The notes: generated from the sequence alone by a model not told the origin. Numbered from the stretch's first letter, positions 41,415-63,549 are shown. The stretch is DNA of 64,000 bases from a virus (IMGVR_UViG_3300037461_000986:1-64000); one strand, 5' to 3'. A program made the numbers and translations.

Positions 41415-44311
41415 CGCAGCACCCCGAGGCTCATCGGCAGCACGCGCACGTAGAAGGTGGCCTCGTTCGTCGCGTGGTTGTTCCGCACATGCAGGAACGC
41501 GCGCCCGCGATTGGCGGGCGTGCTGTCCTCGTTGCGGAAGGGCACGTTCTCGAACTCGACCACCGAGCAGACCAGCGAGTCGGCCGCCCACGACGAGCCG
41601 TCCACGAGCACCTCATCTAGGTCCATGTTGCCCGCCGAGCGCGCGAGGATGCGCACCAGCTCGTAGCGGTTCGCGTCCTCGAAGACGACCGCCGCCTCGT
41701 CCGTGTCAAACATGTCCTCGTCGTTCACCTCTACGTAGTCCTGCGCCGCGGGCAGGATCGCGGAGAGGTAGCTCTGCCGCGCGACGCCGCTTGCCTGCCA
41801 CATCACGTCGCGCCCGTATCCTTGCGACGTGCGGTAGACCCGCAGCCGGAAGTCGGTCGAGTAGTTGTCCGGGTCGGCGACCACGGCCCAGACCTGCACG
41901 AGTTGCAGGATGCCCGCGTCGCCGGTCGTCAGGATCTCCAGCATCTCGTCGCCGCCCGCGCTCAGCGCCGCGGTGGCGTAGTCCGCCTGCGCCTCGGCAA
42001 TCGAGTCGGCCAGCTCCCACGTCCCCGGCGTGCCGGCCCCGGTGCAGCGATACTTGATGCCCTCGTCGTCGAGCACCTCGTGCCCGGCCGCGTAGGTGCC
42101 GGCCGTCGGCGCGCCGGTCGCGCCCAGCGGCGTGCAGCCCACCGCGTCGAACAGCTTCTTCGCCGCGACTACCTCATCCGTGGTCGTGGTGACCGCGTTG
42201 GCGATGGCGACCCCGGCCGCGCTCAAGGTCGGGTAGACGTCGGCAGTGAGGTCGGGCTTGAGCTTGAGCTTGCCGGTCGCGAACTGGAGCCCGCCGTCGG
42301 AGGGGAGCGCGACGCGCGGCTTGCCGAGGCCGTCGTCCTCGATGCCGTCGCCGTATGGTGATGGAATGGCCGGAGGAGAAGCAGACGGCTGGAAACCGCC
42401 TGCAGTAACCGCAATGTCAAACGTCTGACTCGGGACCACGCCCGTAACGAATGCCGTGCCGTAAAGCGTGCCCGCCGTCTCGAGCTCGAAGCCGAACGGT
42501 TCCGCCGACCGATAGGTATCCGCGTCGCTCAGGTCGACGACCATGGTATAGACCGGCTCGAGCCGAGCGACGTCCTGATACAGGATGACCGTGAGCGTGC
42601 CCGTGCCCGTGGTAGGCGTGACCGCCAACATGTAGCCCACGCCTTCGGTGACATATAGGTTCGCATCGACCGCTGTGAAGTCCGTGTCGTCTACGAGATC
42701 AATAGCGGTCTCTTCAAAGCTAACGAGGTGCACGGCACCACGAGCAGCAAGCTCGTCAAGCGCGTTTTGATAATTCCTCGCCGAAAGTCCCGAGACCGCG
42801 TTGTCATATTCGTTCGGCACTTCGATGTCGAAGTCCAGGTTTGTATAGACAACGTCCAAGCCAGCACGACCTTTGAGCGTCTTGGCGGCAAGCTCTGCAA
42901 ACGTTCCTTCGTCGTCAGTTCCGAAAAGGATCTCCGTACCGACATCCCAGCCCAAGAGGCTGACCGTGTCCAATAGTACAATCGCACCCTGGCCATGGAT
43001 GCCCGTGGTGCACGTATCAAACCGCGTCTGCGGAGCTACGCCGCCCGGATGAACCAATTCGAGAATGCTGTCATAAAAGTCTATGCCGACATCGCAGTCG
43101 GCGAAGTAGACCCCCTCTTGAGAGAGAATCGTACCGCCGTGCGTCATATATACGCCAAAAAGCTGTCGACTAAAGGTGGTGCGGTAAAGCGTTGCGTAGG
43201 CGTGATCGTATGAATTATACCCCCATCCTGTGTCATCCAGAGAATGAAAGGCACAATTCCAAAAACTAGAAGAGCTGTACCCGTCTAGGACGTAACCATA
43301 GTTTGATAAGTTGTAATAGCAACCGTAGTGATTAATACCAACGATATTGGAGCTGATCAACGAAGTGGCTGATATGCGGGTCAGGTCCACTTTATAACAA
43401 TTAAGAAAGTTCGCACTGTCAGTCCACGAAGCCGCCTCGTCCAGCCAAAGGTTCTCGATGCTCACTGGCACGCCGCACTGCCTTGCACCAAAATAAATCG
43501 AAGGCCATTCGCCGAAATCATACTTGACACCAGGGTCGGACTCGAGCTCTTCCAGCAGCTCTGGTGCTGCATAGATTGTTCCGACAGGAGTTCCCGCTAG
43601 TCCCGTATGCAGCGCCATGTAAAGCGTAGTCTCGTCATTCGAGTACACCGGATATTGCGCAGAGCCAGGAGCTAAACCAACGAAGTGCCGCCGCCATTGT
43701 TCAGGCGTCCATGCCTTTGCCGGGTCTTGAATCCAGATGCGAGAACCGCGCGTTGCAATATCATTTTGATAAGCTGTCGCAGTGAATGTTTCAACCGCAG
43801 TGAGGACGCCAACGAGGGAAATGCGTCCAGTGCCGTAGAACGCCTTCAAATAGAGATGCCCGTCGGCGTTGCGCGCGCGAATGTCATTACGAAAGTTGAT
43901 GGTCAACACCGCGTTGATTTCGCGCGGCAGGGCATCGGTCGCTCCGGGGATCAAAAAGCCAAACGTCTTCTTCGCCGTGCCCCAGGTGAGGCCATCGTTG
44001 CCGTCGTCGCCAGCCGTGCCGTCGACATAGTAGGTTGTGTCGACGTCAATGGCCGAGCCACCCATCGTCTGCTCGACCCAATCGCCGTTGGTGATGCCGC
44101 CAGAGAGCGTATAGACCTTGTTCTCGGACAGTACCTTGACCCACATGCCCTCCTTGCGGCGGTCATCAGTGATGGCATCGCGCTCGAGGGAATCCGCCAC
44201 CGCGCGGAATCCGCCTCGCCCGTAGGTGTCATCGTGGGTCGGGTATGGATCGGACGTGAGGGACGGGGCGATGAAGCCGCCGACGCGAACGCTGCCGGGT
44301 ATTGTTGGCAT
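41411..44311 (-). CDS. tail fibre / tailspike with a beta-helix module paralogous to modules of the giant protein
   Basis: 966 aa. Residues 94-523 (YYVDGTAGDDGNDGLTWGTAKKTFGFL...EYDNAVSGLSARNYQNALDELAA) are collinear with aa 90-515 and 523-958 of the 3407-aa protein. Confidence 0.75.
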   Translation of the reverse strand: MPTIPGSVRVGGFIAPSLTSDPYPTHDDTYGRGGFRAVADSLERDAITDDRRKEGMWVKVLSENKVYTLSGGITNGDWVEQTMGGSAIDVDTTYYVDGTAGDDGNDGLTWGTAKKTFGFLIPGATDALPREINAVLTINFRNDIRARNADGHLYLKAFYGTGRISLVGVLTAVETFTATAYQNDIATRGSRIWIQDPAKAWTPEQWRRHFVGLAPGSAQYPVYSNDETTLYMALHTGLAGTPVGTIYAAPELLEELESDPGVKYDFGEWPSIYFGARQCGVPVSIENLWLDEAASWTDSANFLNCYKVDLTRISATSLISSNIVGINHYGCYYNLSNYGYVLDGYSSSSFWNCAFHSLDDTGWGYNSYDHAYATLYRTTFSRQLFGVYMTHGGTILSQEGVYFADCDVGIDFYDSILELVHPGGVAPQTRFDTCTTGIHGQGAIVLLDTVSLLGWDVGTEILFGTDDEGTFAELAAKTLKGRAGLDVVYTNLDFDIEVPNEYDNAVSGLSARNYQNALDELAARGAVHLVSFEETAIDLVDDTDFTAVDANLYVTEGVGYMLAVTPTTGTGTLTVILYQDVARLEPVYTMVVDLSDADTYRSAEPFGFELETAGTLYGTAFVTGVVPSQTFDIAVTAGGFQPSASPPAIPSPYGDGIEDDGLGKPRVALPSDGGLQFATGKLKLKPDLTADVYPTLSAAGVAIANAVTTTTDEVVAAKKLFDAVGCTPLGATGAPTAGTYAAGHEVLDDEGIKYRCTGAGTPGTWELADSIAEAQADYATAALSAGGDEMLEILTTGDAGILQLVQVWAVVADPDNYSTDFRLRVYRTSQGYGRDVMWQASGVARQSYLSAILPAAQDYVEVNDEDMFDTDEAAVVFEDANRYELVRILARSAGNMDLDEVLVDGSSWAADSLVCSVVEFENVPFRNEDSTPANRGRAFLHVRNNHATNEATFYVRVLPMSLGVLR

Positions 44312-47778: not shown

Positions 47779-48714
47779 TCAGGCGGTGCGAACGTGGGTG
47801 ACCTTCACGACGGCGTCTTCTTCCTGCCAGTTGCAGCCGACGCGCAACGTTGCGACCGCGATCCACTCGCCGGTCTGGACGTCGTAGTCGGTGTTGATTT
47901 TGATCTTGCGCCACACGCCCCAGATGAAGTTCTTCGGGTGCGTGTAGATGATGTTCGTGCAGCTGCCGCCGTTCAGGTTGTCCGGGAACACGGGGATGGG
48001 CATGATCGGGCGGCCGCCGTAGCGCAGGGCGTCCATGGATTCCAGGAACCGGTCGCCGAGCACTGTGGCGCGATCCGCCAGGTAATCCCGGTAATCGATC
48101 TCGGCGTCCTCGGAGGTCCAGAACTCCTGCTTGTTGCGCAGGCGGTTGTACTGCGACGGCATGGCCTTCACGGCGGACTTCAGCACGCCCTTGTGGATCG
48201 GCACGGTGCCGCCGTTGACGGTGTGCGAGCTGGTCAGGGCCAGCATGCCGTTGAACTGCGCGAGGAACGCGTCGGCCGACCCGGTGCTGCCGTTGACGGC
48301 CAGCTCGTCGGAGTCGAGCGCGATGTGCTCGGAGAACATGCTCATGATGGTGTTCTTGAACGAGCCGCCCTCGATGTTGTCCTCGAGGTACTCGTCGGTC
48401 AGCCGGATCTCGGCCTTCATGAGCTTGGTCTCGATGGTGACCTGCTCGGTCGTCGGCTCGACGCGCTCGGTCAGCGTGAGGGCGCGGCCGCTCTGGGCGG
48501 GGCGCAGCACGCGGCCGCTGATGCCGACCTTGGGCAGCACGGTCGTGTGCGACATCATCGGCTTGACCGTGACGCTCTTCAGCACGACCGACTCCTTGAT
48601 GTAGTCGGTAATGAATGAGGAGGCGACCTCGTCGGGGAGGTAGCCGCCGTTCGATACGAGGTCGGCGACCTCGGCATCGGCCTTTTGGATGATGTTCAGA
48701 TTGGACTCGGCCAT
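47779..48714 (-). CDS. major capsid protein, HK97 fold
   Basis: 311 aa. ..LMKAEIRLTDEYLEDNIEGGSFKNTIMSMFSEHIALDSDELAVNGSTGS..FLAQFNGMLAL.. fits the HK97-family capsid pattern. It follows the protease and scaffold genes. Confidence 0.85.
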   Translation of the reverse strand: MAESNLNIIQKADAEVADLVSNGGYLPDEVASSFITDYIKESVVLKSVTVKPMMSHTTVLPKVGISGRVLRPAQSGRALTLTERVEPTTEQVTIETKLMKAEIRLTDEYLEDNIEGGSFKNTIMSMFSEHIALDSDELAVNGSTGSADAFLAQFNGMLALTSSHTVNGGTVPIHKGVLKSAVKAMPSQYNRLRNKQEFWTSEDAEIDYRDYLADRATVLGDRFLESMDALRYGGRPIMPIPVFPDNLNGGSCTNIIYTHPKNFIWGVWRKIKINTDYDVQTGEWIAVATLRVGCNWQEEDAVVKVTHVRTA

Positions 48715-48730: not shown

Positions 48731-49501
48731 CTAGCGGAGCGTGTTCATGTCGGGCGCCCACAGTTTGCGCGGCGCGGCCTTCTTTGGGTCGGGAACGGCC
48801 TTGGCGATCTCCCCGGACGGCATCGCGTGCGATGCGCCGACGGTCGCCTTGAGCGCGCGCGCGCGGGCCTCGGCGGCGACCTGCGCCTGCCGGGCCTTCT
48901 CCAGCTCCGCGCGGACCGCGGAGAGTTCATGCTCGCGCTCGACCAGGGCCTTGGCGATCGCATCGCTCGGGTCGGCCTTGGTCGTCTCCACGCGCGCGGG
49001 CGGAGCGAGAGGCGGGTCGGACAGCGCGGCGGGAGGCGGCGCGACAGCGGCGGCATGCTTCTCGAAGGCGACCTCGGCCATAGCCAGGGCGATGGCCTCG
49101 CTGGCCGCGACCAGCTTCGCCAGGAAGTCCACAGCGGGGACGACCGGCAGGGAGGGCTCGGAAGGGGATGCGCTCAGCTTGCCCATGGGTTCCTCTCGGG
49201 GGGACGTGGCAGCGGGCGCCGCGTCCGAGTCATTCGAAGCGCCGGGGGGGGCGCTCCGGGATGCACTGTCTTCGGTCTTGCTGGCGGGCGCCATCGCCGC
49301 GCCGCACGCCGGGCAGGTCACGTCGTCGGGATCGACGGCCGCGCCGCACTCGGGACAGGTCAGGGCCTTGATGATCATGAACGCCTTCTGTCGGTTCGCG
49401 CCGGCCGTGACCAGCGACACGAAGCTGACGTCCATATTCTCCAGCCGGGTCACGGGCTTGGTCTGCTCCTCGCCCTTGTCCAGCGCTGCGGTGTCATCCA
49501 T
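48731..49501 (-). CDS. scaffold-like protein with a zinc ribbon and a coiled-coil C-terminus
   Basis: The start was re-set to ATG 49501 (MDDTAALDKG...). It contains VSFVSLVTAGANRQKAFMIIK, then CPECG..x12..CPACG, then an Ala/Glu-rich helical tail (..EHELSAVRAELEKARQAQVAAEARARALK..). It lies immediately upstream of the capsid gene. Confidence 0.5.
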   Translation of the reverse strand: MDDTAALDKGEEQTKPVTRLENMDVSFVSLVTAGANRQKAFMIIKALTCPECGAAVDPDDVTCPACGAAMAPASKTEDSASRSAPPGASNDSDAAPAATSPREEPMGKLSASPSEPSLPVVPAVDFLAKLVAASEAIALAMAEVAFEKHAAAVAPPPAALSDPPLAPPARVETTKADPSDAIAKALVEREHELSAVRAELEKARQAQVAAEARARALKATVGASHAMPSGEIAKAVPDPKKAAPRKLWAPDMNTLR

Positions 49502-50213
49502 TGCGTGGCGCCTCCACCTCGACGCGGCGGGCCGACCCGCCAATCGAGAACGCTCCCAGTTTGCCATCCTTCGCCGCCGCCCACAATTCATCGTCGAGTA
49601 CGCGCAGCCCTAAAAGCCACGAGCCCTTGAGCACCTTGGCCTCACCGATGGTCATGTCGACCGGCGCGAGGTAGTTCTCCACGACCTTCACGCGCTCGAC
49701 GCCGAGCGCCTTCCAGTTGTGTTGCAGGTCCACCGCGCCGCCCTTCTCCATCCAGCCGTGCGCCGCGCGCCGGATCTCCGCCGCGCTGTAGATGTCGCCC
49801 TGCGTGTCGGGATGGAACGGGGCGTCCTCGCCGTCGTTCGGCTCGAGCACCATGGACAGCACGAAGCGCTCCTCGGCCTCCTCGTTGGCGGCCTTGCGCA
49901 CGTCGGTCGCGAGCACGCGGAGCTGGGCGGCCACGCGCCGGGTCAGCGTGCCGACCTGCTCACCGAGATGCTCGACGACGGGCTCGCGTGGACACTCCTT
50001 GTAGATGAACACTTCCGGCCTGTCGCTGCGCAGCTCCGCCACGGTGATGAAGCCTTCGATGCGTAGGCGCGCGCCGTGCGCCGGCCGGTGCCCCTTGGTG
50101 AGCGGGCCGAGGCGCGTTGCGAGCGCGGCGATGCCGTCGACGATCTGGTCGTCGGACCCGGGGATGAACATCGTCTCCCCGTCGCGACAGATCGGCAGGC
50201 CGATCATATTCAT
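49494..50213 (-). CDS. prohead protease, XkdF-like (Peptidase_S78_2-type)
   Basis: The start was re-set to ATG 50213 (MNMIGL...). ..FVLSMVLEPNDGEDAPFHPDTQGDIYSAAEIRRAAHGWM...DLQHN...VVENYLAP....VLKGSWLLGLRVLDDELWAAAKDGKLGAFSIGGSA fits the XkdF-family signature as I recall it. Confidence 0.7.
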   Translation of the reverse strand: MNMIGLPICRDGETMFIPGSDDQIVDGIAALATRLGPLTKGHRPAHGARLRIEGFITVAELRSDRPEVFIYKECPREPVVEHLGEQVGTLTRRVAAQLRVLATDVRKAANEEAEERFVLSMVLEPNDGEDAPFHPDTQGDIYSAAEIRRAAHGWMEKGGAVDLQHNWKALGVERVKVVENYLAPVDMTIGEAKVLKGSWLLGLRVLDDELWAAAKDGKLGAFSIGGSARRVEVEAPRNG

Positions 50214-51277
50214 CAGGTCGGCCGCGAGCTGCACGCGCGCTTGAAGGCGCGGAAGCGCTCGCCCACGGGCTCGTCCGGGGACAGGTCGCCGGCCCACGCG
50301 AACTTGGCGACGTCGTCGTCTGTCGCGACGGTATCCGTGGCCTCGGGCTCGGTGGCCGCATCGGCGGCCTTCGCCGTCGGCTTCTTCTTGCCGCCCGCGC
50401 CGCAGCCCTTCATGTCTTCGGATTCCTCATCCTCGTCCAGGTCCGTCTCGGGCGCGCCGTTCGGCGCCTCCTCCTCGGCGGCCGGCGGGAACGGGGCCTT
50501 CTTCGGCTTCTCGGCGCGCGTGGCCTTGGCCTTCTCGAGCGCCTGCGCGGCCTCGACCAGGTCGGCGGCCTTCTGCGCGATGGTCGCGGCGCAGGTGACC
50601 AGGTGCGCGAGGTCGTAGGTGCCATCGAGCAGCTTGCGCAGCTCGTCGGAGTCGTCGGCCTCGTCGGCGGCCTTGGCGGTCAGGGCGCCGATGGCGGCCA
50701 TGAGCGCGTCCACAGACGACAGCGTGAGGGCGGAGTCGATGGCGTCCTTGGACAGGGCGTCCTTGGCCTGCTCGACGGGCGGCGCCTCGGGCGCGACCTC
50801 GACGGTGGCGGCGGGCGCGGGCTCGGGCGCCGGGGCCGCGTGCTCGCGCGCGACGGGGTTGCCCACGCCGGTGCGGAAGCGCTGGTCGAATTTCTTTTCC
50901 ATCTCGTCGAGGCGGCGCAGCACGACGTCCATGGGGTCGAGCTTCTCGACCACCGGCACGCGCACGGCGTAGATCGTCGCGCCCCGCTCGGCCTGCTTGC
51001 GCACGCCCGCGACGTTCTCACGCAGCAGGGCGAGGCGGTCGAGGTCGGGGGCCTTGGCGAGCGCGGCCTGCTCCTCGGCGAGGAACTTCTCGAAGTCCGC
51101 GGCGGCCATGGTGGCCAGCTCGGCCGTGACCGCGTTGGCGTCTCCGGTCTTGCTCGTCGCAGAGACAAGCTTCTCGGTGATGACGGCCAGCTCCGCACGT
51201 TCGGTAGCCGTCGCGGTCCCGTCGAAGACCTTGCCACTCAGCTCGATTTGCTTTCGCACTGCGTCCATCATTGTCAT
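50213..51277 (-). CDS. acidic coiled-coil scaffold-like protein
   Basis: The start was re-set to ATG 51277, preceded by GGAGGAG (MTMMDAVRKQ...). Ala/Glu/Lys-rich helical protein with an acidic tract (ETDLDEDEESED). Confidence 0.5.
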   Translation of the reverse strand: MTMMDAVRKQIELSGKVFDGTATATERAELAVITEKLVSATSKTGDANAVTAELATMAAADFEKFLAEEQAALAKAPDLDRLALLRENVAGVRKQAERGATIYAVRVPVVEKLDPMDVVLRRLDEMEKKFDQRFRTGVGNPVAREHAAPAPEPAPAATVEVAPEAPPVEQAKDALSKDAIDSALTLSSVDALMAAIGALTAKAADEADDSDELRKLLDGTYDLAHLVTCAATIAQKAADLVEAAQALEKAKATRAEKPKKAPFPPAAEEEAPNGAPETDLDEDEESEDMKGCGAGGKKKPTAKAADAATEPEATDTVATDDDVAKFAWAGDLSPDEPVGERFRAFKRACSSRPT

Positions 51278-51701: not shown

Positions 51702-52073
51702 CTATTCGGTCAACCATTCGACAGGCTCCTCGGGCGGCGGGGCCTCGTCGTAGACGTCTTCCTCGCCCTGGTCCGCGTCCGGTCCCTCAAGGCGTGCCCA
51801 GTCCACTGCAAACCCTACTGTCGGCAACGCCAGGCGCAGCGCGCAGGCCGCGCCCCAGAAGCCCTCCCACCCAAACACGGGGCCAAGCGGCGCACGAAAT
51901 GACACGCGCGCAAGGTCGCTGTGCGCGCGGACGGCCGCCGCAATGCGCGCCTCGAGGTCCGGATTGTGCGGGGTCGAGACAATCTTCCAGGTCCCTGCTG
52001 TATCGACGCGCACCTCAGCAACGACCTTGCCCGCGCCTTCGCTCGCACCCTCGGTGATGGGAATCGAATACAT
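51702..52073 (-). CDS. hypothetical protein
   Basis: 123 aa with an acidic C-terminus. Confidence 0.55.
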   Translation of the reverse strand: MYSIPITEGASEGAGKVVAEVRVDTAGTWKIVSTPHNPDLEARIAAAVRAHSDLARVSFRAPLGPVFGWEGFWGAACALRLALPTVGFAVDWARLEGPDADQGEEDVYDEAPPPEEPVEWLTE

Positions 52074-52082
52074 TTTGTCCCC

Positions 52083-55000
52083 TTAGTGTGGCACATAATG
52101 GCCGCGCAGCGCGGAAATCATAAAGGCAACCTGGTCGGCGGCCACCTCCCAGTTCTTCCCGATCTCAGCGGCGCTGCTAAGCCGCTCGACTGCTGTCGAC
52201 AGGAACTCGGTATTAGTTCGCGTATCGTACTCGTCGATGGACGCAGGCGTTTGATAGTCCTTGGCCTTCAGCGGCTTGCCCAGATTCTTGATCAATGCCT
52301 TTGCTTCTTCGCCATACACTTTCGCATCGTACCGATCCATGAACGCACCCGGTAACGCGTATTCGTCCTCGGTGCCTCCCTTGCCGTAAAGGGAAATGTC
52401 GCCCTTGAGCAGGTTATCGACATCACGCGCAAGACGGTTGCGCACAATGCGGGCGGCCACGCCGTTCTTTCCAACGCGATCGACGAGGTGCGCGCCCTCG
52501 TGCTTCAACACACGGCGGCCCGCGACCGCCGCTCGCCCGCTTTGCCCTGATAGCGTCCGCTCGTAGTTATCTGGCATGGAGATAAAGGCGCCCTCGCCGT
52601 CCTCTCCGAATAATACCAGCCGGCGCTTCATGAATCCTCGCCGCCATTGGAGGGATCGATAGAACCGCGGCGCGCCCATTGCGGCAACCGCCTGAACTAC
52701 AGGATCGGAACAATGCTGCAGGGCGAAGTCGAGCGCCTTGCGGGCCGTCTCCCCGCGCTGCATCTCGAGTGACCCCTTGATCTTGTCAGACACCGTGGCA
52801 CGGTCGGCGGCCGTCTGGGCCGCTACCTGTGCCGGCGTCATCTTGGCCGTGCGGTCGACCAGCACGTCGCTAGGCTTGGCCTTGGCCGCGCCCTCCTTCA
52901 CGATCTTCGTAATGATCTGGCCCTTTTCCGCCGTCTTCAGCGCGCGGCCGAGCCGCTCCTCTTCTTTGCGGATGCGCCCCTGGACTTCATCGCGAACGAT
53001 TGCCAACCGCTTGTCGACCTGCTCATGCACGGGCACGCCAGGGATCAAATTCCGTTGGTTCCAATCGATGCGCGCCTTGGGATACGCCTGGCGCACGTCG
53101 GTGAAGAGTTCGACGCCAAGCTTCGCGAGCTTCTCTGCATTGCCCGTCTGGATCCACGCATCGGCAACGCGCGTGAATACATCCGTCGGCACCTTGCCAA
53201 GCACGGCGCCGTCGATGCGCAGGAACACCGCATTGCCCTCGTGGTCATTGACCACCCAGTCGCGCTTGCCAGCCAAGTTCGAGGCGACCTCGGCTTCGAG
53301 GGCCGAGACGAGAAACCGCCGGCTCGCTGGAAATCGTGGGTTTACGAGCTGCGTTGCGGTGACGTTGACGACATGGTCCGACGGCTGGGGCCGGATGACG
53401 CGCAGCGAGGTTTGGAACGTGACCGCCTTGTCGCTCAACGCGGCCCACTCGGACCGCTTCACCGGCACGCCGTTGGCATCAACGGTGGCACTCGACCAGA
53501 CGGCGTGCTCTTGTTTCCACTGCGCCTTGGTAATGATGGCCCCGTCGGGCCGCGCAGCATAGAGTTGCGCCCCGATGGGTGCGTCCTTAAGCGCGCCGGT
53601 CAAACGCGGTCCGGCCGGTTCCTCCAAGGGCGACGGCCCAGCATTCGGCTTTGTCCCAGTCTGCGGCTGCGCGCCGGTCGTGCGCGGCTTGGCCAAGGGA
53701 CTACGCGCGGGCAGACCACTCGTTCCCATGGTCACGCGCGCGGTTGCCGGGTTGCTCACCGCGTCCACGGTTTTACCAATCCGCACAGCGCCCGCGAGCT
53801 CGGCGATGCGCAGCAACTCCTCAGCCGCTACCTGGGCCTCGGCGGGCGTCGTGGCTAGGCGCACAGCCATGGCGGCATCGGCCATCGCCTTGGTCATGCG
53901 CCCAGTGAAGCGCGCCCAGATCGTCTCGCCCTTGGTGTCCACCATCTGCACGAGACGCGACCGACCTGCCGAGGCGGGATTTGCCACGAGCGCACCAAGT
54001 GCCGCGCGACTACTCGATTGCGCGGTGAGGTGCATGACCGCATGACCAGGAGTTGCAAACAGGCCCGGGTTCGTCGCGAGTTCGTCTATTTGCGCGCGCG
54101 CCCAGGGGGCAGCCTCATCGAAGCCGCGCGTCATGGGATCAGAGCCCATAGTGCGCACGCCATACACCTCGGCCGAGGCACCTATAGCGCGCCGCGTTCC
54201 AGCATCAGGCGCCTTCCACCTGGGCAGGCCGTAGTCGTCGACCGGAGTGAGGGTGCCGGTGACTACGGGCTTACTCGGCGTCGGCATCTTGAACTGCTCC
54301 AACGCGCCGAAGGAAGTCCAATCGCCATTCTCGGATGGAGCCGGGCCGACCGCGCGCATCGCACTGCCTTTCGGCACTTGCGCGACATCCATGCGCGGCA
54401 CCAACGTCGTGCGGCAGTTGTGGTGGTAGGGCGGCGCGCCGACATTGGCACCATTGAAGCCTGCCCCGGCGACGAATTGTTGCGCGCGACCGCGGTCGTC
54501 CACATTGCCCGAGCCCTCGCGCTCGAAGCGCCCGAGTAGGGTCTTGCCCGCGTGGATCTCCATGGCGCCTTGATCGTTGCGCGTCTGTCGTAGGAAGGGC
54601 GCGACCTTGCCGATGTCCTCCGGGGTCGTCACCGCCGCCGCACGATTCGCAAGATCTAACGCGCCGGCAATGGGAATCACTTGCCCGTCCATCAGGCGGC
54701 AGTTGTGCACCACCACCGTCTCGGCCACGTAGGTCGGGTCATCCTGCACCTCGAGGTTGTAGACGTCGTACATGCCATCGGCGAACACGTCGACCTCGGT
54801 GACCAGCACGTTCGCGCAGCGCTCGGCGTAGGCGCTGGCAGGCAGCTCGGCCCACGGGTCTGCCTGCTCGCCGCGCCGCCGCAGGTACTCGGTATAGAAC
54901 CACGCGACCTCGCGCGGGGGGCGCGTCGAGCGATGGCGCGTCGAGACGACGTCGCCACTGCACAGGGCGCCCGCCGGCTGCCACCCATGCCGCGTGAGGA

Positions 55001-56201
55001 ACGGGTGCTCCTCGGTGACGTAGAGCTGCCGCCCGGATGAGGTGCGCACGCGCACGATCGAGTGGACCAGCCGCTTGCTGCGCTTGAGGACGGTCCCGAG
55101 AAAGCCGAAGCCCGTGACCACCTTGTCGCCCGGATGGATGAGTTCGATGGCGCGCTCGCCCGCCTCGGTCAGGATCTTGGTATTCCCTAAAAAGCAGATG
55201 TCGGTGGTGCGTTCGTCGAGCATCGCCACGACCTCCGCGTACTCGATGCCGCCCTCGGCGTAGGTACTCAGCTCGGCGTGGCTGCGCGCGCGCGCCAGGC
55301 CGTTCGCGGCCACGGTGTGCGCGTAGCCCTTGCCCATGCCCTGCCACAGATCCGGGAGTTGTTTACGGAGATCGTCGGCGACCTCGGCCCGTCCGAGTCC
55401 CTGCGCGAAGCCGGCCGCGACGATCTTGCGCGCGCGCAGGGTGAGCGCGTCGTTGCGCTGGCCGTCCATGCCGCGCACGAACCAGCTCTGCTGCGCCACG
55501 AGGCGTTCGACAGCGGCGACCTGCGGCGCGCTGATGTCGATCTCGACCGCGCCCAGAAAGCGGTCCTTGACGCTGCCGCGCGTGCCCTGCGCCATACCCT
55601 TAAAGTGCGGATCGGCTGCGTCCATCCACGCCCGGTCCAGGCCCCGCTGCTCGGTGCGCAGAGCGGCGGCCGCGCGCTTGAGCTCGTCCGCGGAGTTCTC
55701 TTGTGTAACGTCTTGGAGGCGGTCCACGAACCGGTCTACGGCGGGCAGGCCGGCCGCGGCATCGGCGGCCGCGAGGTCGGCGGCCGCGCGCCGGGTCAGG
55801 CCCTTGAAGTCGTCCGGCCGAAACGGGTCGAGCTTTGCTTTGAGGATCACGCCGGTCGGCGCAAGGATCTCCGGGCTCGGCGTCGTCGAGAAGCGATCGG
55901 TGGCGGCCCACAGGATGCGGCCGTCCGCGCGCACGCGCGCCCCCTGGTAGAGCGTGACCGCCTTCGCCCCCTGCGCGCCCAAGTCCGCGACGCATGCCAG
56001 GGCATCCCGATGGCCCGAGACCGGCAGGCGCCAGCGCTGCGCGCGCTCGAGCCGCACGGCCCACAGCGGAAGCGTCCCCTTGGCAATCGCCGCGCTCCCT
56101 ACCCCTCCGTACGCCGCCGCCGCCGCCGCGTCGCGCCCGAGATCGACTAGCGGCCAGAGCAGGGCGTAATCGCCCGCCGGATGTCGGAAGAGGGGGGTCA
56201 C
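52083..56201 (-). CDS. MuF / SPP1 gp7-type head morphogenesis protein, polyvalent form (1372 aa) with an intein and a C-terminal HExxH module
   Basis: The start was set to GTG 56201, which overlaps the upstream TGA as GTGA. The MuF core is ..ARSHAELSTYAEGGIEYAEVVAMLDERTTDI[intein]CRLMDGQV...APPYHHNCRTTLVP. A ~720-aa extension follows, ending with ..RRVLKHEGAHLVD.. (HEGAH at 52488-52502). Confidence 0.8.
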   Translation of the reverse strand: MTPLFRHPAGDYALLWPLVDLGRDAAAAAAYGGVGSAAIAKGTLPLWAVRLERAQRWRLPVSGHRDALACVADLGAQGAKAVTLYQGARVRADGRILWAATDRFSTTPSPEILAPTGVILKAKLDPFRPDDFKGLTRRAAADLAAADAAAGLPAVDRFVDRLQDVTQENSADELKRAAAALRTEQRGLDRAWMDAADPHFKGMAQGTRGSVKDRFLGAVEIDISAPQVAAVERLVAQQSWFVRGMDGQRNDALTLRARKIVAAGFAQGLGRAEVADDLRKQLPDLWQGMGKGYAHTVAANGLARARSHAELSTYAEGGIEYAEVVAMLDERTTDICFLGNTKILTEAGERAIELIHPGDKVVTGFGFLGTVLKRSKRLVHSIVRVRTSSGRQLYVTEEHPFLTRHGWQPAGALCSGDVVSTRHRSTRPPREVAWFYTEYLRRRGEQADPWAELPASAYAERCANVLVTEVDVFADGMYDVYNLEVQDDPTYVAETVVVHNCRLMDGQVIPIAGALDLANRAAAVTTPEDIGKVAPFLRQTRNDQGAMEIHAGKTLLGRFEREGSGNVDDRGRAQQFVAGAGFNGANVGAPPYHHNCRTTLVPRMDVAQVPKGSAMRAVGPAPSENGDWTSFGALEQFKMPTPSKPVVTGTLTPVDDYGLPRWKAPDAGTRRAIGASAEVYGVRTMGSDPMTRGFDEAAPWARAQIDELATNPGLFATPGHAVMHLTAQSSSRAALGALVANPASAGRSRLVQMVDTKGETIWARFTGRMTKAMADAAMAVRLATTPAEAQVAAEELLRIAELAGAVRIGKTVDAVSNPATARVTMGTSGLPARSPLAKPRTTGAQPQTGTKPNAGPSPLEEPAGPRLTGALKDAPIGAQLYAARPDGAIITKAQWKQEHAVWSSATVDANGVPVKRSEWAALSDKAVTFQTSLRVIRPQPSDHVVNVTATQLVNPRFPASRRFLVSALEAEVASNLAGKRDWVVNDHEGNAVFLRIDGAVLGKVPTDVFTRVADAWIQTGNAEKLAKLGVELFTDVRQAYPKARIDWNQRNLIPGVPVHEQVDKRLAIVRDEVQGRIRKEEERLGRALKTAEKGQIITKIVKEGAAKAKPSDVLVDRTAKMTPAQVAAQTAADRATVSDKIKGSLEMQRGETARKALDFALQHCSDPVVQAVAAMGAPRFYRSLQWRRGFMKRRLVLFGEDGEGAFISMPDNYERTLSGQSGRAAVAGRRVLKHEGAHLVDRVGKNGVAARIVRNRLARDVDNLLKGDISLYGKGGTEDEYALPGAFMDRYDAKVYGEEAKALIKNLGKPLKAKDYQTPASIDEYDTRTNTEFLSTAVERLSSAAEIGKNWEVAADQVAFMISALRGHYVPH
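54702..55196 (-). other. mini-intein (165 aa, Hint domain, no endonuclease) inside the MuF domain
   Basis: It begins CFLGNTKILTEAG (block A). It has VTEEHPF (block B, TxxH). It ends DVYNLEVQDDPTYVAETVVVHN, followed by a +1 Cys. Removing it restores the contiguous sequence DERTTDI-CRLMDGQV. Confidence 0.8.
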
Positions 56202-56491
56202 TTGTCCCCCACTAGGCGCGGCACGCCGGTATGAATAATGAACCACCGTCCGCAGCGCCGGCAGGTCCCAGCCCCGCAATGGATCGGCGTGAGCAGGTTC
56301 GGCGCGTCGGCATACCCGGTCGCCACCTGGGCCGTGAACTGGAGCGCGGCGCACGCCGGACAGCGCAGGATGGCCACGGGGCCGCGCTGTACGATGTCGC
56401 CGGACTCTAACGCGCCCGCCGCATAGGCCGCGCCCAGCGACGTGACGTCCGCCCGCAGGCGATAGCGGGCAATGCGCAGGGCGTCAGGCAT
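56198..56491 (-). CDS. small zinc-ribbon protein (Com-like arrangement)
   Basis: 97 aa with CPAC...x24...CGAGTCRRCG. Confidence 0.55.
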   Translation of the reverse strand: MPDALRIARYRLRADVTSLGAAYAAGALESGDIVQRGPVAILRCPACAALQFTAQVATGYADAPNLLTPIHCGAGTCRRCGRWFIIHTGVPRLVGDK

Positions 56492-57210: not shown

Positions 57211-57570
57211 CTATTTGAAAACGCCGAGTCCGGCGGCCACCGCCGCGATGAACAGGTGATCCTTGGCCTTCTGCGCCTCCGGCAGGTCTGCATATGGAAC
57301 CATGCACGGATGCTCTTTGAGGTCTGGATCCTTGACCGGGCCGTACTTCCACCCGTCGGCTACCTTCTGCTCGAGCCAGGATACGTGTGAGTCCTCTGGC
57401 TTCATCTCGGGATTAGCCTCGATGTTTTTAACTCCCATAATCGCGCTGTACTGCTGCCACTCGGGCGCGTCCTCCCACGCGGGCTGCGACATATCGCCCA
57501 GCAACGCGCAGTACAAGCGATTGACCTCATGCGCAAAGCGCGCGACCTCGATGGCATACTCTTTCGTCAT
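57211..57570 (-). CDS. RyR-domain protein
   Basis: The start was re-set to ATG 57570 (MTKEYAIEVARFAHEVN...), preceded by AGGGAG. HVSWLEQKVADGWKYGPVKDPDLKEHPCMVPYADLPEAQKAKD matches the RyR-domain signature (H..W....GW.YG...D...K.HP..VPY..L.E..K..D). Confidence 0.7.
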   Translation of the reverse strand: MTKEYAIEVARFAHEVNRLYCALLGDMSQPAWEDAPEWQQYSAIMGVKNIEANPEMKPEDSHVSWLEQKVADGWKYGPVKDPDLKEHPCMVPYADLPEAQKAKDHLFIAAVAAGLGVFK

Positions 57571-57580
57571 GGTGCTCCCT

Positions 57581-58060
57581 TTATGATGGCGGTGTGACAA
57601 AGTACGGCTCGACCCACTCGCTGAAGCTGGCCACACTCTCGGAGGCGCAGAGCGGCCGGACGCAGGCGGCGCGCCCGCTCGCCCGCAGCCCGCGGTCCGG
57701 GCCGACCACGATCTGCGTGACCAGCTCATCGTAAAGCGGGAACGTAACCGGGTGCACCAGCGTGCCGCCGACGGTCGGGCCGAGCGCGTACACGCCGAGC
57801 GCGCGCGCAATCTGCCGCAGCGCGTCGGTCGCCACGAGCGCGTCCGTGCGCTCGTTCCACGCGGCGCTGAACGTGATGATGCGCGGACCACCTTCGTATG
57901 TGATCGTCTGCGTCCACCGCGCCACGTTGATGAAGTCGCCACCACCGCCGTCCGGCCGCGGGACGATCGGTTGCGCGTAGGCCTCCATGCCCAGCGCCAC
58001 CGTGAACGTGTCGCCGTTGCAGTTGCTCACCAGGAAGCTGCCGAGGACGGGCGGGATCAT
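57581..58060 (-). CDS. hypothetical protein
   Basis: 159 aa. ATGA overlap with the upstream ORF. Confidence 0.55.
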   Translation of the reverse strand: MIPPVLGSFLVSNCNGDTFTVALGMEAYAQPIVPRPDGGGGDFINVARWTQTITYEGGPRIITFSAAWNERTDALVATDALRQIARALGVYALGPTVGGTLVHPVTFPLYDELVTQIVVGPDRGLRASGRAACVRPLCASESVASFSEWVEPYFVTPPS

Positions 58061-58341
58061 GACGCCCTCGACGGGTCGTCAGTGCGCAGCACCGGCCGGT
58101 AGCCGTTGCAGTCGAGGCGCGGCATGCAGCGCTCCGGGATGATGTCGCCCTCGCGCCGCGCGAGGTAGGCCGCGGCGGGCGAGATGCAGTAGTAGCCCGC
58201 GCCGTCGGTCTTGGTGATGATGACGTCCGCCCACGGATTCGTGATCGGATCGTGCTCGGGGCCGAGCCGCCAGCGCGAGCCCACCTCCAGCGTTCGATAC
58301 GGCCCCATGCTTTTTGTTTCGAAGCACAGCGGTAGCGTCAT
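58057..58341 (-). CDS. hypothetical protein
   Basis: This is the credible C-terminal part of track ORF 58057..58878. ATG 58341 (MTLPLCFETKSMGPYRT...) overlaps the portal stop as ATGA. The upstream part of that track ORF is antisense-like junk lying inside the portal gene. Confidence 0.5.
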   Translation of the reverse strand: MTLPLCFETKSMGPYRTLEVGSRWRLGPEHDPITNPWADVIITKTDGAGYYCISPAAAYLARREGDIIPERCMPRLDCNGYRPVLRTDDPSRAS

Positions 58342-60212
58342 GGTTCCTCGCCCTCCATCGCGCGGGTATCGCGCAGCGTGACGCGGAGCGCGTCCGCGTG
58401 CCCGGCCTCGACCAGCTCCTCGGTCAGGATGCGCGCGATGCGCTCCTCGAGCTTGGTGAGCTTCTGCTCCATGGCGAACTGGGTCTCGTACTGCGGCACG
58501 CCCGCGCCCGGCTGGTACCCGGCGAGCGTGAGCGGGAGCGGCTGGTTCGCCCACTCGGGCGGCACGTGGTCCACCGGCAGGTTGAGCACGTCGGCGGCGA
58601 GCCGCTGGATCTGCGCCGGGGTCAGGCCGCCGTGCGGCGCGACCTGCGCGACGAACGTGCCGACCTGCTCCGCACTGCGCGTGGGCGGCGTGTTGGATTG
58701 GAAGCGCAGGAACCGGATGCCCAGCTCGGGCAGGATGACCCGGTTCATGACATTGTCGAACGCCTCGCGGAGCGGCTGATAGACCTGCTGCTCGGTGAAG
58801 TTGAGCACGGCCTCGGCCGTCGCGCGGTTGAGGTTGTCGGGCGTGTAGCCGCGCATGAGCGGCGACTGCCGGAAGCACGCACCAATGATGTTGGCCGCCC
58901 GGGTGTCGTACTCAAGGAACATGGCGTCTTGGGTCTGCGCGTCGCGGAAGCTCTGGAAGGTGATGGTCGGCAGCATTGAGCGCTCGCCGGTCACACCGCG
59001 CGAGGCCAACGCCTCGACCACGAGGAATCGTGAGGTGTTCTTGCTGCCCTGCATCTCGGTGCGCAGCCGGTGCTCGAGCCGGGCCTTGACGTCCTGCTTG
59101 ATGGACCCGCCGGACACGAACAGCATGCCGCCGACGAACATCTTGTTCCGCAGGTGGTAGTAGTTCGTCTCGTTGGCCTCGCGCGTGCCGAGCACGTTGA
59201 GGATGGCCGGCGCCCAGCGCGGCGGCGAGCACGGAGACTTGGCGTAGTGCGGCGCGAAGAACAGCAGCTCGTTGGCCGGTAGCGCGGTCGGCCCCTCCTC
59301 CGCCTTGAGCGCGCGCGGCGTCGGAAAGAACTTGCCGGACTGGAGGCTGACGGTGCGCGGGTCGCCCGGGCTCTTAAAGAAGACGACGCGCCCGTCCACG
59401 TTCTGCACGTAGCGCCGCAGCCGGCGCCAGGTCTTCATCTCCCGCCCTTGCGATAGCACAGTGATGTTGTCGTCCTCGATGACCTCGACCGCCTCGTCGA
59501 AGTTCGCCACCGGGCGCACGGTGTAGCCCTGGACGTAGGCCAGGCGCCGCAGCCGCTCGTCCGAGTCGCGAATCATCTCCATGCAGCCCCAGCCGCTGGA
59601 CTCCACATCGATGCGTACCGCTTTGCGCAATTCGACGAACGAGCGGTCCGAGCAGCAGTTCGCAAACCACGAGTCGAAGCGGAAGTGCTCGCGCCGCAGC
59701 CGGCGGCCGATCATGTCGACCACCTCGTTGATGTCCTCGTCGGTGGCGTCGGGGGGCTCGGGCGTATCCTGGCCGACCGGGGTCGTCAGGTCGAGGTCGA
59801 ACCAGCGCTCGTACTCGAGCGCCTCCCGGATGGCCTCCCGGGCCTCGTCGCTCTCCAGGTCGGTCATCCAGTTAGCGATCGGCACGCCGGTATAGCCGAA
59901 GCCGTCGATGTTCTGGGCATAGCCGTCGATGTTCGGGCCGAGGTGCGGGCACAGCTCCACGAAGTTCAACATCGCGGCCGGGTCCCACGGCGTATCGCAG
60001 GCGCCCTGGGCATCCCAGGCCGCGGCGCTGTCGGCCATGGTCTGGAGCGCGGTCGCCTCGTTGATGGTGGCGTCCACGGCAACCGCGGCCTTGGCCAGCA
60101 GCTCGCGCGTGCGCACGGGCTCCGCGGTGTCCAGGCCGAACACGCTCACGCCCGCCTCGCCCGCGCCGCCGCGCTTCCCGCGCTTGTGCTTGGTGATGGT
60201 GTCGTCGGTCAT
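58338..60212 (-). CDS. portal protein
   Basis: 624 aa, of typical size and position. ..FFAPHYAKSPCSPPRWAPAILNVLGTREANETNYYHLRNKMFVGGMLFVSGG.. resembles the conserved core of P2 Q/PBSX-type portals. Confidence 0.8.
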   Translation of the reverse strand: MTDDTITKHKRGKRGGAGEAGVSVFGLDTAEPVRTRELLAKAAVAVDATINEATALQTMADSAAAWDAQGACDTPWDPAAMLNFVELCPHLGPNIDGYAQNIDGFGYTGVPIANWMTDLESDEAREAIREALEYERWFDLDLTTPVGQDTPEPPDATDEDINEVVDMIGRRLRREHFRFDSWFANCCSDRSFVELRKAVRIDVESSGWGCMEMIRDSDERLRRLAYVQGYTVRPVANFDEAVEVIEDDNITVLSQGREMKTWRRLRRYVQNVDGRVVFFKSPGDPRTVSLQSGKFFPTPRALKAEEGPTALPANELLFFAPHYAKSPCSPPRWAPAILNVLGTREANETNYYHLRNKMFVGGMLFVSGGSIKQDVKARLEHRLRTEMQGSKNTSRFLVVEALASRGVTGERSMLPTITFQSFRDAQTQDAMFLEYDTRAANIIGACFRQSPLMRGYTPDNLNRATAEAVLNFTEQQVYQPLREAFDNVMNRVILPELGIRFLRFQSNTPPTRSAEQVGTFVAQVAPHGGLTPAQIQRLAADVLNLPVDHVPPEWANQPLPLTLAGYQPGAGVPQYETQFAMEQKLTKLEERIARILTEELVEAGHADALRVTLRDTRAMEGEEP

Positions 60213-61944: not shown

Positions 61945-63549
61945 CTATAGCAGATAGCCGCCGCTCTCCGCGCCCACATTGAGACGGATCTCATCTTCAC
62001 CGCCGGTCGCCCAGGCGTCAAGGAAGTACCGCCTTGCGGCGTCGAGCGCCTGGCTGAAGGTATCCACTAGGTCGTCGTGCTTGCCGAACGGGAAGTCCAG
62101 CAACTCGCTCACGAGGTCGCCGCGGCCGGGCATCCAGGCCGGGTCGTCACTGTTGAGCGTTCTCGAAAAGATGACCTCGCCGCGCTCCATGAGGGGCGTC
62201 ACCGCGATGAGGCGCTGCGCCTTGCTTACGCGCGGCTTCGTCACCTCGATGATGCCGGCCAGGGCGGGCTCAATATTGAGCACCCACTCGTCCAGTGAGG
62301 CCTGCCCTACCTTCTCGATGAGCACGCGCAGCGGGTTGTACTTCCGGTGTTCCTTGATGACCTGCTGGGCCATGACGTTTAGCGTCAGGCGCGCGGCCCA
62401 GCTATCGATGACGTACACGCGGCGGGCATCGGCATCTACCGCGATCGTGCAGCTCGCAGAGTAATCCTGGTCGGCGTTGCCCGTCGGCGAGCCCGCCGTG
62501 TCGTAGCTCGTAAAGAACACGAGGTGGCCGCCGGCCAGGCGGTCGGCAAAGATCGGGTCGCGCGCGAGGTCGGAGAACTTGATCCAGCGATCGCGCACGA
62601 TCGCCGAGTCCTCATCGACGGGGTTATTACGGAAGCCCCGGTTGAACTCGATGGACTGGATCTCCTGATAGCGCGCGCGCAGGTTCGCCTCGCTCCACTT
62701 CTCCGGCCACATGGCGCCGAAGGCGTGGTCGATGGCGTAGAAGTAGGTCGCAAACGCAGGGTTGACCATGAGCTGGTGCGAGAGGTCGTCCTTGTGCCAG
62801 AGCGTACAGATGTACCAGATGCGCGAGTCGGGCTCGAGCAAGTTCGTCCAGTCGCTCTTCCATGCCTGCTTGATCTGCTCGCGCAGCGCCGGGAAGGACA
62901 GGGCGTTGCGGCGGTCCACGGCGTCGTCCGCGATGAGCAGGTCCGCACGGCCGCCCGTAGCCGTCGAGGTAATACCGAGCGCCTCGATGCTGGCATCCCT
63001 ATGGAACGCGCTACGCTCGACGATGATCTTGTGCTTCGACCACTCGCCCCGCTCCGCCTGCACGAGGCGCGGAAAGACCTCGCGGATGCGCGGGTTGTAC
63101 TCCAAGTGCTGCACCACCTCGAAGAGCCGCTCCTTCGCGCGGCCATCGCTCGCGCACGCTATCTTGATGCGCAGGTTCGGGTCGCGCCCGAGCTCCCAGA
63201 GCGCGCGCCCAATAATCTGCGACGTCTTGCCGTGGTCGCGCGGCGCGATAATGAGCACGCGGCCGCCCGTATCCATGGCCGTGCTCCACTCATCGTGGAA
63301 CCACTGCTGGGCGAACGGCCGCCCCGTATGCGAGTCCATGAAGCAATACTGCATGAAGGTCGGGAAGTGCTCGCGCGCGCGCCGCCGATGTACCTCTTGC
63401 AGGGCACTGAGCCGCAGGCGTAACTCTTCCGCGCTGGCCTCGGGCGTGCGCATGTTCGCCGGCCCGATCATCTCGTCGAGATAAACGAGGTGCTCCTGCG
63501 GCGGTCGGTAGCGCGCATCAAGATGCCCGATCTGATCGAATGCGTTCAT
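61945..63549 (-). CDS. terL: terminase large subunit
   Basis: 534 aa. Walker A-like IIAPRDHGKTS and Walker B-like DLLIADD. The nuclease half has FFTSYDTAGS and the C-terminal GKHDDLVDTFSQAL typical of terminase large subunits. Confidence 0.9.
   Translation of the reverse strand: MNAFDQIGHLDARYRPPQEHLVYLDEMIGPANMRTPEASAEELRLRLSALQEVHRRRAREHFPTFMQYCFMDSHTGRPFAQQWFHDEWSTAMDTGGRVLIIAPRDHGKTSQIIGRALWELGRDPNLRIKIACASDGRAKERLFEVVQHLEYNPRIREVFPRLVQAERGEWSKHKIIVERSAFHRDASIEALGITSTATGGRADLLIADDAVDRRNALSFPALREQIKQAWKSDWTNLLEPDSRIWYICTLWHKDDLSHQLMVNPAFATYFYAIDHAFGAMWPEKWSEANLRARYQEIQSIEFNRGFRNNPVDEDSAIVRDRWIKFSDLARDPIFADRLAGGHLVFFTSYDTAGSPTGNADQDYSASCTIAVDADARRVYVIDSWAARLTLNVMAQQVIKEHRKYNPLRVLIEKVGQASLDEWVLNIEPALAGIIEVTKPRVSKAQRLIAVTPLMERGEVIFSRTLNSDDPAWMPGRGDLVSELLDFPFGKHDDLVDTFSQALDAARRYFLDAWATGGEDEIRLNVGAESGGYLL

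Follow-up and report, generated by a model that had tools for sequence, protein, structure and literature searches.

A zincin-like metallopeptidase (MPTase) is the commonest domain of phage polyvalent proteins, among them the N4 virion RNA polymerase and the P1 DarB-type proteins, and a self-processing role has been proposed for these MPTases (Iyer 2017, PMC5512222). Metallopeptidase domains also occur in 20% of MuF toxins (Jamet 2017, PMC5576092), and a survey of actinobacteriophages found inteins in minor capsid proteins of the SPP1 gp7 family (IPR006528; bioRxiv 10.1101/2025.01.02.630785). Here we describe a gene of a 64,000-nucleotide stretch of viral DNA (IMGVR_UViG_3300037461_000986:1-64000, hereafter the window) which combines these elements. 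The gene, on the minus strand at 52083-56201, codes for a protein of 1372 amino acids (aa) with an intein-interrupted MuF/SPP1 gp7 core, followed by a long C-terminal extension of three predicted domains (D1, D2 and D3), the last of them zincin-like, and by a small downstream gene, here called the partner. Comparison with its relatives suggests, at a little under even confidence, that the product is a packaged, self-processing polyvalent minor head protein in the MuF position.

The protein shares with MuF/SPP1 gp7 proteins (PF04233; PMC5576092) the DERTxxCxxxDG and PPYHxxCR motifs and the position after the portal gene, and with the long MuF proteins of the same study a long C-terminal extension followed by a small open reading frame (ORF). 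On the other hand, it carries no variable toxin domain but a fixed three-domain array, it also has an N-terminal extension of 220 aa that is conserved, and its carrier is a myovirus without evidence of lysogeny. As in the MPTases of polyvalent proteins (PMC5512222), the HExxH helix of the D3 model follows a three-strand sheet, an insert of variable nature separates it from a later helix with a Glu, the domain is part of a large multidomain protein among virion genes, and lethal factor is the best solved analogue. Unlike those MPTases, D3 is undetected by Pfam zincin/MPTase models, its similarity to PDB structures is non-significant (E 0.3, template modelling (TM) score 0.42), and it has an insert of ~90 residues, an RGH(Y/F)VP(F/H/Y) tail and an obligatory downstream partner. 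The intein resembles those of the survey (bioRxiv 10.1101/2025.01.02.630785) in its MuF-family host protein and sporadic distribution, but is a 165-aa mini-intein without endonuclease, whereas the survey inteins carried non-canonical homing endonucleases. MuF fusions, MPTase polyvalent proteins, metallopeptidase MuF proteins and SPP1-gp7 inteins are thus already documented; new here are a rare family, two confidently modelled domains without a match, a highly divergent zincin, an obligate partner, and fused, split and absent variants.

An exhaustive HMMER search of 1.84 billion cluster representatives with the extension recovered only 27 representatives. The near-full-length homologs (1034-1369 aa) align across most or all of the extension, most of them end to end, and the identities of the domains co-vary across homologs, being highest for MuF (38-54%) and 17-36% for the extension domains. 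Since the alignments run end to end, the identities co-vary and the loci are syntenic, the extension is a fixed, inherited part of a small family and not swapped-in cargo. An earlier annotation of the window, made by a model from the sequence (the first-pass annotation), had proposed comparing C-termini among MuF homologs and had spoken of a C-terminal cargo. The comparison revealed a common D1-D2-D3 array in all near-full-length members, and variable cargo does not agree with it, the order N-terminal extension, MuF, D1, D2, D3 being conserved across the family. The gene and extension gave no match among 50,697 GenBank phages by megablast and tblastn, and the extension protein gave none in IMG/VR, from which a capsid search and a DNA motif each retrieved one related contig. 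A word-indexed protein search, too insensitive here, returned nothing for the extension, two matches for the D3 profile and two for the MuF half, and two degenerate-motif scans of 185,579 species-representative genomes, with narrow patterns, found no true copy. The family is rare and belongs to a clade of high-GC myoviruses.

Three domains were predicted by AlphaFold2 in residues 607-1372 (28-sequence alignment; mean predicted local distance difference test score (pLDDT) 86.4, predicted TM score (pTM) 0.69). No Pfam, PHROG or PDB sequence match to the extension was found with profiles, per-member scans or the family profile. The first-pass annotation had put the C-terminal part at about 720 aa and had been unable to name its cargo; the part is indeed long, though it measures 766 aa, and no sequence family covers it, but D3 can be named at the level of fold. 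D1 and D2 had no significant PDB fold match in Foldseek with the whole-extension model, searched against PDB only (best E 0.41); matches of the whole extension to Cmr2, BubCD and ricin, none below E 0.4, were dismissed as noise. Judged from these models, D1 and D2 may be without known relatives, and D2 at least may be a new fold. The best-conserved part of the extension is the D2 motif FYPKAxVDWxxRNLIPGVPxxEQV (residues ~1039-1063), and W919, G989, R995, G1055, Q1061 and R1065 of D2 are invariant. The disordered proline-rich linker between D1 and D2 (residues ~822-861) is a candidate hinge or cleavage region in the predicted structure.

When D3 was modelled alone, a pLDDT of 91.2 and a pTM of 0.88 were obtained. 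The model contains strands at 39-43, 50-56 and 59-69 (D3 numbering), a helix at 83-101 bearing HEGAH and, beyond the ~90-residue insert, a helix at 193-202 that begins at Glu1332, so that three-strand sheet, HExxH helix and later Glu helix follow each other in the zincin layout. The PDB matches in Foldseek, all non-significant, were enriched for zincins and included anthrax lethal factor (E 0.3, probability 0.5, TM 0.41-0.42), Certhrax, the minimal zincin 2ejq and ACE. The significant matches of D3 in BFVD were to phage proteins, 221-637 aa long, that are uncharacterised (E 1.3e-4 to 4e-3, probability at least 0.99); weaker matches carried the annotations metallopeptidase, SprT-like and M48 (E 0.14 to 5), and other weak ones large polyvalent protein associated, minor capsid protein, ART and RelA/SpoT fusions. 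D3 of the window had no Pfam match at E up to 10, no Pfam zincin/MPTase model detected it, and the family profile found no peptidase among PDB sequences; a single Reprolysin_3 match (E 0.063) was obtained among 26 members in Pfam.

The nominal top PDB match of D3 was the HExxH domain of ChlB (8s5f, E 0.26), which raises the alternative that this domain is another metal enzyme, such as an HExxH-type Fe/2-oxoglutarate oxygenase. That is extremely improbable, as the 8s5f match has a TM of 0.22-0.28, a root-mean-square deviation of up to 15 A and a probability of 0.14-0.21, against the better TM and higher probability of lethal factor, and the strand-helix-Glu-helix layout is that of a zincin. By layout and motifs D3 is best described as zincin-like, and it is assigned to no curated peptidase family. 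It represents a divergent form of an established class and no novel type of effector; the C-terminal module, which the first-pass annotation thought might be a new ejected effector, has the layout found most often in polyvalent proteins.

The HExxH motif reported near the C-terminus in that annotation was confirmed as HEGAH, residues 1234-1238, with a chance expectation of 0.02 for any HExxH in a protein of such composition. It is aligned and present in 20 of the 26 homologs that cover the site, and therefore is not a chance motif. The six homologs that lack it (P0012, P0015, P0020, P0022, P0023 and P0025) have different sequences in its place, from which about five independent losses can be deduced. 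Of the 26 homologs, 22 keep Glu1332, namely all 20 with HExxH but only two of the six without it (Fisher p=0.001, uncorrected for phylogeny), and because its retention follows that of HExxH, these alignments support Glu1332 as the putative third metal ligand. An aspzincin arrangement, with the Asp of LPGxxxDxYDxKVYG as third ligand, was rejected since the Asp positions vary (Q, A, S, T or E in several HExxH-positive members) while Glu1332 is kept in all of these. HExxH-negative versions of D3 retain the rest of the domain, including the near-invariant C-terminal tail. Lack of HExxH conservation among orthologs had been named in advance by the first-pass annotation as a refutation of an ejected effector, and the outcome was mixed: most members keep the motif, and six have lost it with the domain kept, which suggests that catalysis is dispensable in some lineages.

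Repeated loss of catalytic residues, with fold, C-terminal tail and partner kept, is in line with a mainly structural or morphogenetic role, in which D1, D2, D3 and the partner would form an internal or portal-proximal body (scaffold-like, core or DNA-pilot), the zincin fold would be used for binding, and the metal site would be vestigial or only stabilising. Strict synteny inside the head-assembly module, an end-to-end architecture inherited with MuF, and weak Foldseek matches to entries named 'internal core protein', 'structural protein' and 'minor capsid protein' also agree with such a role. However, some three quarters of the members, at 20-30% identity, still have HExxH and Glu1332, and the two are lost together, pointing to a selected metal site; D2-D3 are also dispensable in an otherwise syntenic locus (L028, below). 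We regard a mainly structural role as rather improbable.

In three lineages D3 is found as a gene of its own, each cut at a different point. L011 and L012, from two independent samples, share a TGATG junction, at which an upstream gene extending through D1 and the proline-rich linker gives way to a gene for a 466-aa protein with D2 and D3; the split corresponds to about residue 890 of the window protein, just past the linker. In L013 an 897-aa MuF protein is followed directly by a 342-aa protein made of the end of D2 and D3, and L009/L010 code for a 389-aa D2-D3 protein with no MuF in the 1.9 kilobases (kb) upstream. HExxH was lost in all three separate-D3 lineages, with a different replacement in each, compared to three losses among the other 23 homologs (p=0.008). 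In L028 the protein (P0028) stops just after D1, without D2-D3.

The partner gene (~120 aa), recognised by a hidden Markov model (HMM) of six orthologs, follows directly upon the gene that codes for D3, both in the window and in 12 of 12 comparison contigs carrying D3, including those with split, standalone and HExxH-negative versions. It had no Pfam or PHROG match. In L028 it is absent, and the first gene downstream there is orthologous to the one that comes second among the small genes elsewhere. Since L028 lacks both D2-D3 and the partner but has D1, these comparisons indicate that D1 belongs with MuF, being attached even in a relative without D2-D3, and that D3, usually with D2, and the partner gene form a co-inherited unit.

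The coincidence of gene fission with HExxH loss is the key support for a protease serving to separate fused parts, and the split just past the disordered proline-rich linker was counted in favour of cleavage there. In the self-processing reading the intein would splice out and restore a normal MuF domain, which, by analogy with SPP1 gp7 and Mu gpF, would bring the protein to the portal and to the inside of the procapsid. MuF would permanently carry D1 and, in most members, also a separable D2 and the zincin-like D3, working with the small downstream protein. D3 would most likely cut in cis or within the assembly, at one or more exposed proline-rich linkers, and the cut, made in the head or once the protein had been delivered along with the DNA, would release D2-D3 from the anchor formed by MuF and D1. 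MuF, with D1, would be a head-targeting anchor, and D2-D3 with the partner its passenger. Packaging, zinc binding, proteolysis, the place of the cut and any effect on the host are inferences from these comparisons and models. A further proposal, that D3 (usually with D2) and the partner constitute an undescribed two-gene head-module cassette whose zincin chiefly cuts the fusion and whose site decays after fission, is possible but on balance doubtful.

Several observations weigh against self-processing. HExxH is missing from two fused lineages, that of P0015 and its relative P0012 and that of P0022, and so self-cleavage cannot be universal; in these, either the XkdF-type S78 prohead protease encoded nearby would do the cutting or no cut would be made, and any processing could be the work of this protease instead of D3. 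The partner is retained even where D3 is catalytically dead, suggesting a role in binding or structure in addition to catalysis. Neither by sequence nor by PDB structure did D3 match a proven peptidase significantly, and the candidate ligands His1234, His1238 and Glu1332 are placed by their order in a predicted model. The association tests for HExxH loss are based on small numbers and carry no correction for phylogeny, and the family is known from sequences and predicted models. Self-processing matches the comparative data at least as well as the ejected-effector idea.

Identity to the closest relative, L002, is not uniform along the locus, being 97% for the portal, 65-85% for the small genes between portal and MuF, 77% for the N-terminal extension, 85% for MuF, 48-54% for D1, D2 and D3, and 44-46% for the partner. 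Along the MuF fusion itself, identity to the L002 protein (P0001) steps down from ~85% to ~50% near residue 650. The extension and partner also form a block of low GC content at third codon positions (GC3) in the window (0.76-0.77, compared to 0.84-0.95 in the flanking genes), with no comparable dip in L002. This block fits either replacement by a divergent allele or faster, less constrained evolution.

Fast evolution, low GC3 and the joint gain and loss of D2-D3 and partner are signs expected of a conflict cassette, and both MuF fusions and MPTase domains are characteristic of polyvalent proteins that are packaged and injected (PMC5512222, PMC5576092). The protein could accordingly be an injected anti-host or anti-defence effector, in which the zincin would cleave a host protein, for example one of defence or of the envelope, the partner would act as inhibitor or chaperone and so protect the cell in which the phage is produced, and self-processing would be secondary or absent. 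The extension and partner are in fact the fastest-evolving part of the locus relative to L002 (44-54% identity, against 77-85% for the N-terminal extension and MuF and 65-97% on the portal side), although relaxed constraint or low expression could also produce fast evolution and low GC3. Moreover, six of the 26 members keep domain and partner without the catalytic motif, Pfam and PHROG scans gave no similarity to a known toxin or anti-defence family, and no host target can be proposed. We consider an injected effector unlikely, though plausible in view of the way the block behaves like a cassette.

A polymorphic MuF toxin of the classical kind, carried by a temperate phage and with the small ORF after it as immunity protein (Jamet 2017 model), would have the same outline, namely an N-terminal MuF and a long C-terminal extension followed by an ORF of <150 aa (PMC5576092), and metallopeptidases make up 20% of the MuF toxin domains in that study. 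The C-terminal domain here, however, is the same throughout the family, neither polymorphic nor shared with other toxin families, and the partner persists beside a dead D3, a fact that immunity by itself would not account for. The two narrow motif scans of 185,579 genomes revealed no prophage copy, and the carrier is a large myovirus with no lysogeny gene within the 64-kb window. These results make a polymorphic toxin very improbable.

Zincin domains are widespread in polyvalent proteins, and their protease role is still conjectural: self-processing, host attack, or nothing catalytic. The present family offers natural experiments within one syntenic frame, with fused, split and absent forms, catalytically intact and dead versions and an obligate partner, and so makes the question testable. 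If the cassette or self-cutting reading is true, the family would provide direct comparative evidence for the long-proposed self-processing of MPTases and a simple test system. It also adds two modelled domains without a significant PDB fold match and one more intein of a MuF protein.

The gene is a single ORF with its stop codon at 52083-52085, in a minus-strand frame that stays open to 56354 (Table 1). The GTG codon at 56201 is credible as start because it forms a GTGA overlap with the stop of the 97-aa gene before it, is preceded by a GGGGGA ribosome-binding site and coincides with the start called independently in P0001, whose gene has equal limits. In the first-pass annotation the product had been described as a MuF-type head protein with long extensions and an intein in its core, an account that these analyses support, and about 220 aa had been placed ahead of the MuF core, in agreement with an N-terminal extension of residues 1-220. 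This extension, without a Pfam match, is 18-34% identical across full-length homologs. The core itself, located earlier at 54390-55532 with an intein inside, was recovered by Pfam and PHROGs at residues ~221-606; the statement that it makes up about a quarter of the protein holds only with the intein counted, the share being ~16% without it.

Removal of the intein raised the Phage_Mu_F (PF04233) score from 21.4 to 36.9 bits, across the gathering cut-off of 29.6, and PF04233 was matched at the front of the protein by 18 of 18 full-length homologs. The invariant columns of MuF are C501, R502, D505, G506, P590, P591, Y592, H593, C596 and R597. That an intein interrupts the core, as first proposed, was verified in three ways. 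All splicing residues are present (Cys1, C336; block B, T396-E-E-H399; H499-N500; +1 residue, C501). Pfam Hint_2 scored 33.5 bits against a cut-off of 28.4, with Intein_splicing and PDB RecA and other mini-inteins also matched. The intein is precisely absent from homologs other than P0001, which read DERTTxxCRxxDG without interruption at the insertion site, the conserved Cys of the DERTTxxC motif. The intein has no homing endonuclease domain.

Table 1. Features of the MuF fusion gene and of the surrounding structural-gene block (coordinates of the window)
Feature	Coordinates	Strand	Basis or remarks
Whole gene, 1372-aa MuF fusion	52083..56201	-	ORF/translation, GTGA overlap, P0001 limits
N-terminal extension, residues 1-220, motif GxYALLWPxxDLG	55542..56201	-	aligned in 18/18 full-length homologs
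MuF/SPP1 gp7 core, N-part, residues 221-335, ends DERTTDI	55197..55541	-	PF04233; PHROG head-morphogenesis and minor-head-protein families
Mini-intein, residues 336-500, 165 aa	54702..55196	-	Pfam Hint_2, Intein_splicing; PDB mini-inteins
MuF core, C-part, residues 501-606, CRLMDG ... PPYHHNCR	54384..54701	-	spliced-sequence Pfam score; invariant columns
Low-confidence linker, residues 607-651	54249..54383	-	AlphaFold2 pLDDT 50-66; identity to P0001 falls near 650
Domain D1, residues ~652-821, predicted alpha/beta	53739..54248	-	AlphaFold2 pLDDT ~90
Disordered proline-rich linker, residues ~822-861	53619..53738	-	pLDDT 29-53
Domain D2, residues ~862-1140	52782..53618	-	pLDDT 85-98
Domain D3, zincin-like, residues 1141-1372	52086..52781	-	D3-only AlphaFold2 model; BFVD matches; motif statistics
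HEGAH, residues 1234-1238, within D3	52488-52502	-	HExxH motif
Candidate third ligand Glu1332, within D3	52206-52208	-	conservation with HExxH
Partner gene, 123 aa, GWxGFWG...ALRLALPxVG...VDW motif, acidic tail	51702..52073	-	HMM of six orthologs
Zinc-ribbon gene, 97 aa, CPAC ... CGxGxCxxCG	56198..56491	-	overlaps MuF gene start; conserved in relatives
Terminase large subunit (TerL)	61945-63549	-	head/packaging module
Portal	58338-60212	-	head/packaging module
XkdF-type S78 protease domain	49494-50297	-	head/packaging module
Major capsid protein	47779-48714	-	head/packaging module
Sheath	17974-20220	-	tail genes, with head-tail adaptor, tape measure and baseplate

The window covers a block of structural genes from a high-GC (~68%) myovirus, and every gene of this block lies on the minus strand. 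The MuF fusion gene lies in the packaging/head module after the portal gene, the position of the MuF family, with several small genes between them, and several very large ORFs are found beyond the capsid gene. The order TerL, portal, zinc ribbon, MuF fusion, partner, XkdF-type protease, capsid is shared by the window, L002-L007, L013 and L028, except that the partner is missing from L028. Deposited phages are distant, with less than 27% identity in the terminase and at most 38% in the capsid (36-38% for the nearest), and the MuF protein of the cultured phage nearest by capsid has only 125 aa. The zinc-ribbon gene is 46-79% identical to the gene at the same position in L002, L003 and L004, and genes of similar size occupy this position in L005, L006, L007 and L028. 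A frameshift joining the zinc-ribbon ORF to the MuF N-terminus, considered because some homologs start with CxxC, was rejected since those loci also carry a separate zinc-ribbon gene.

Other genes of the window were also noted. Between portal and MuF, a small gene (57211-57945, minus strand) codes for a RyR domain (PF02026, ~57255-57408) with strong PHROG matches; it has no counterpart in L002 and is apparently an inserted accessory gene. In the scaffold position, between protease and capsid, the ORF at 48731-49591 (minus strand) has a zinc-ribbon motif at residues 78-98. A 3407-aa ORF (24575-34798, minus strand), located between the head genes and the head-tail adaptor, has a pectate-lyase-like region (residues 2841-3051) as its sole Pfam match and may be a giant fibre, a depolymerase or a polyvalent virion protein. 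The 1375-aa ORF at 36031-40158 (minus strand) combines an M14 zinc-carboxypeptidase (154-242) with Kelch-type repeats (563-744), an unusual pairing in a phage structural module. The minus-strand ORFs at 41411-44311 (966 aa) and 40050-41591 (513 aa) had no Pfam match. The lowest GC of the window (0.579, against ~0.68) is that of 42001-44000, and may mark a laterally acquired segment.

Among the relatives, the contig JARPNI010000487.1 from a metagenome-assembled genome (L006) carries an HTH_17 gene and a resolvase-family recombinase at 811-1775, just upstream of the portal, the one sign within the family that a member may be temperate or mobile. In L003, a 52-kb contig, proteins of the ParB_N and TAGT (PF20691) families are encoded upstream of the terminase (1-1376), and the TAGT match may point to DNA base modification in the clade.

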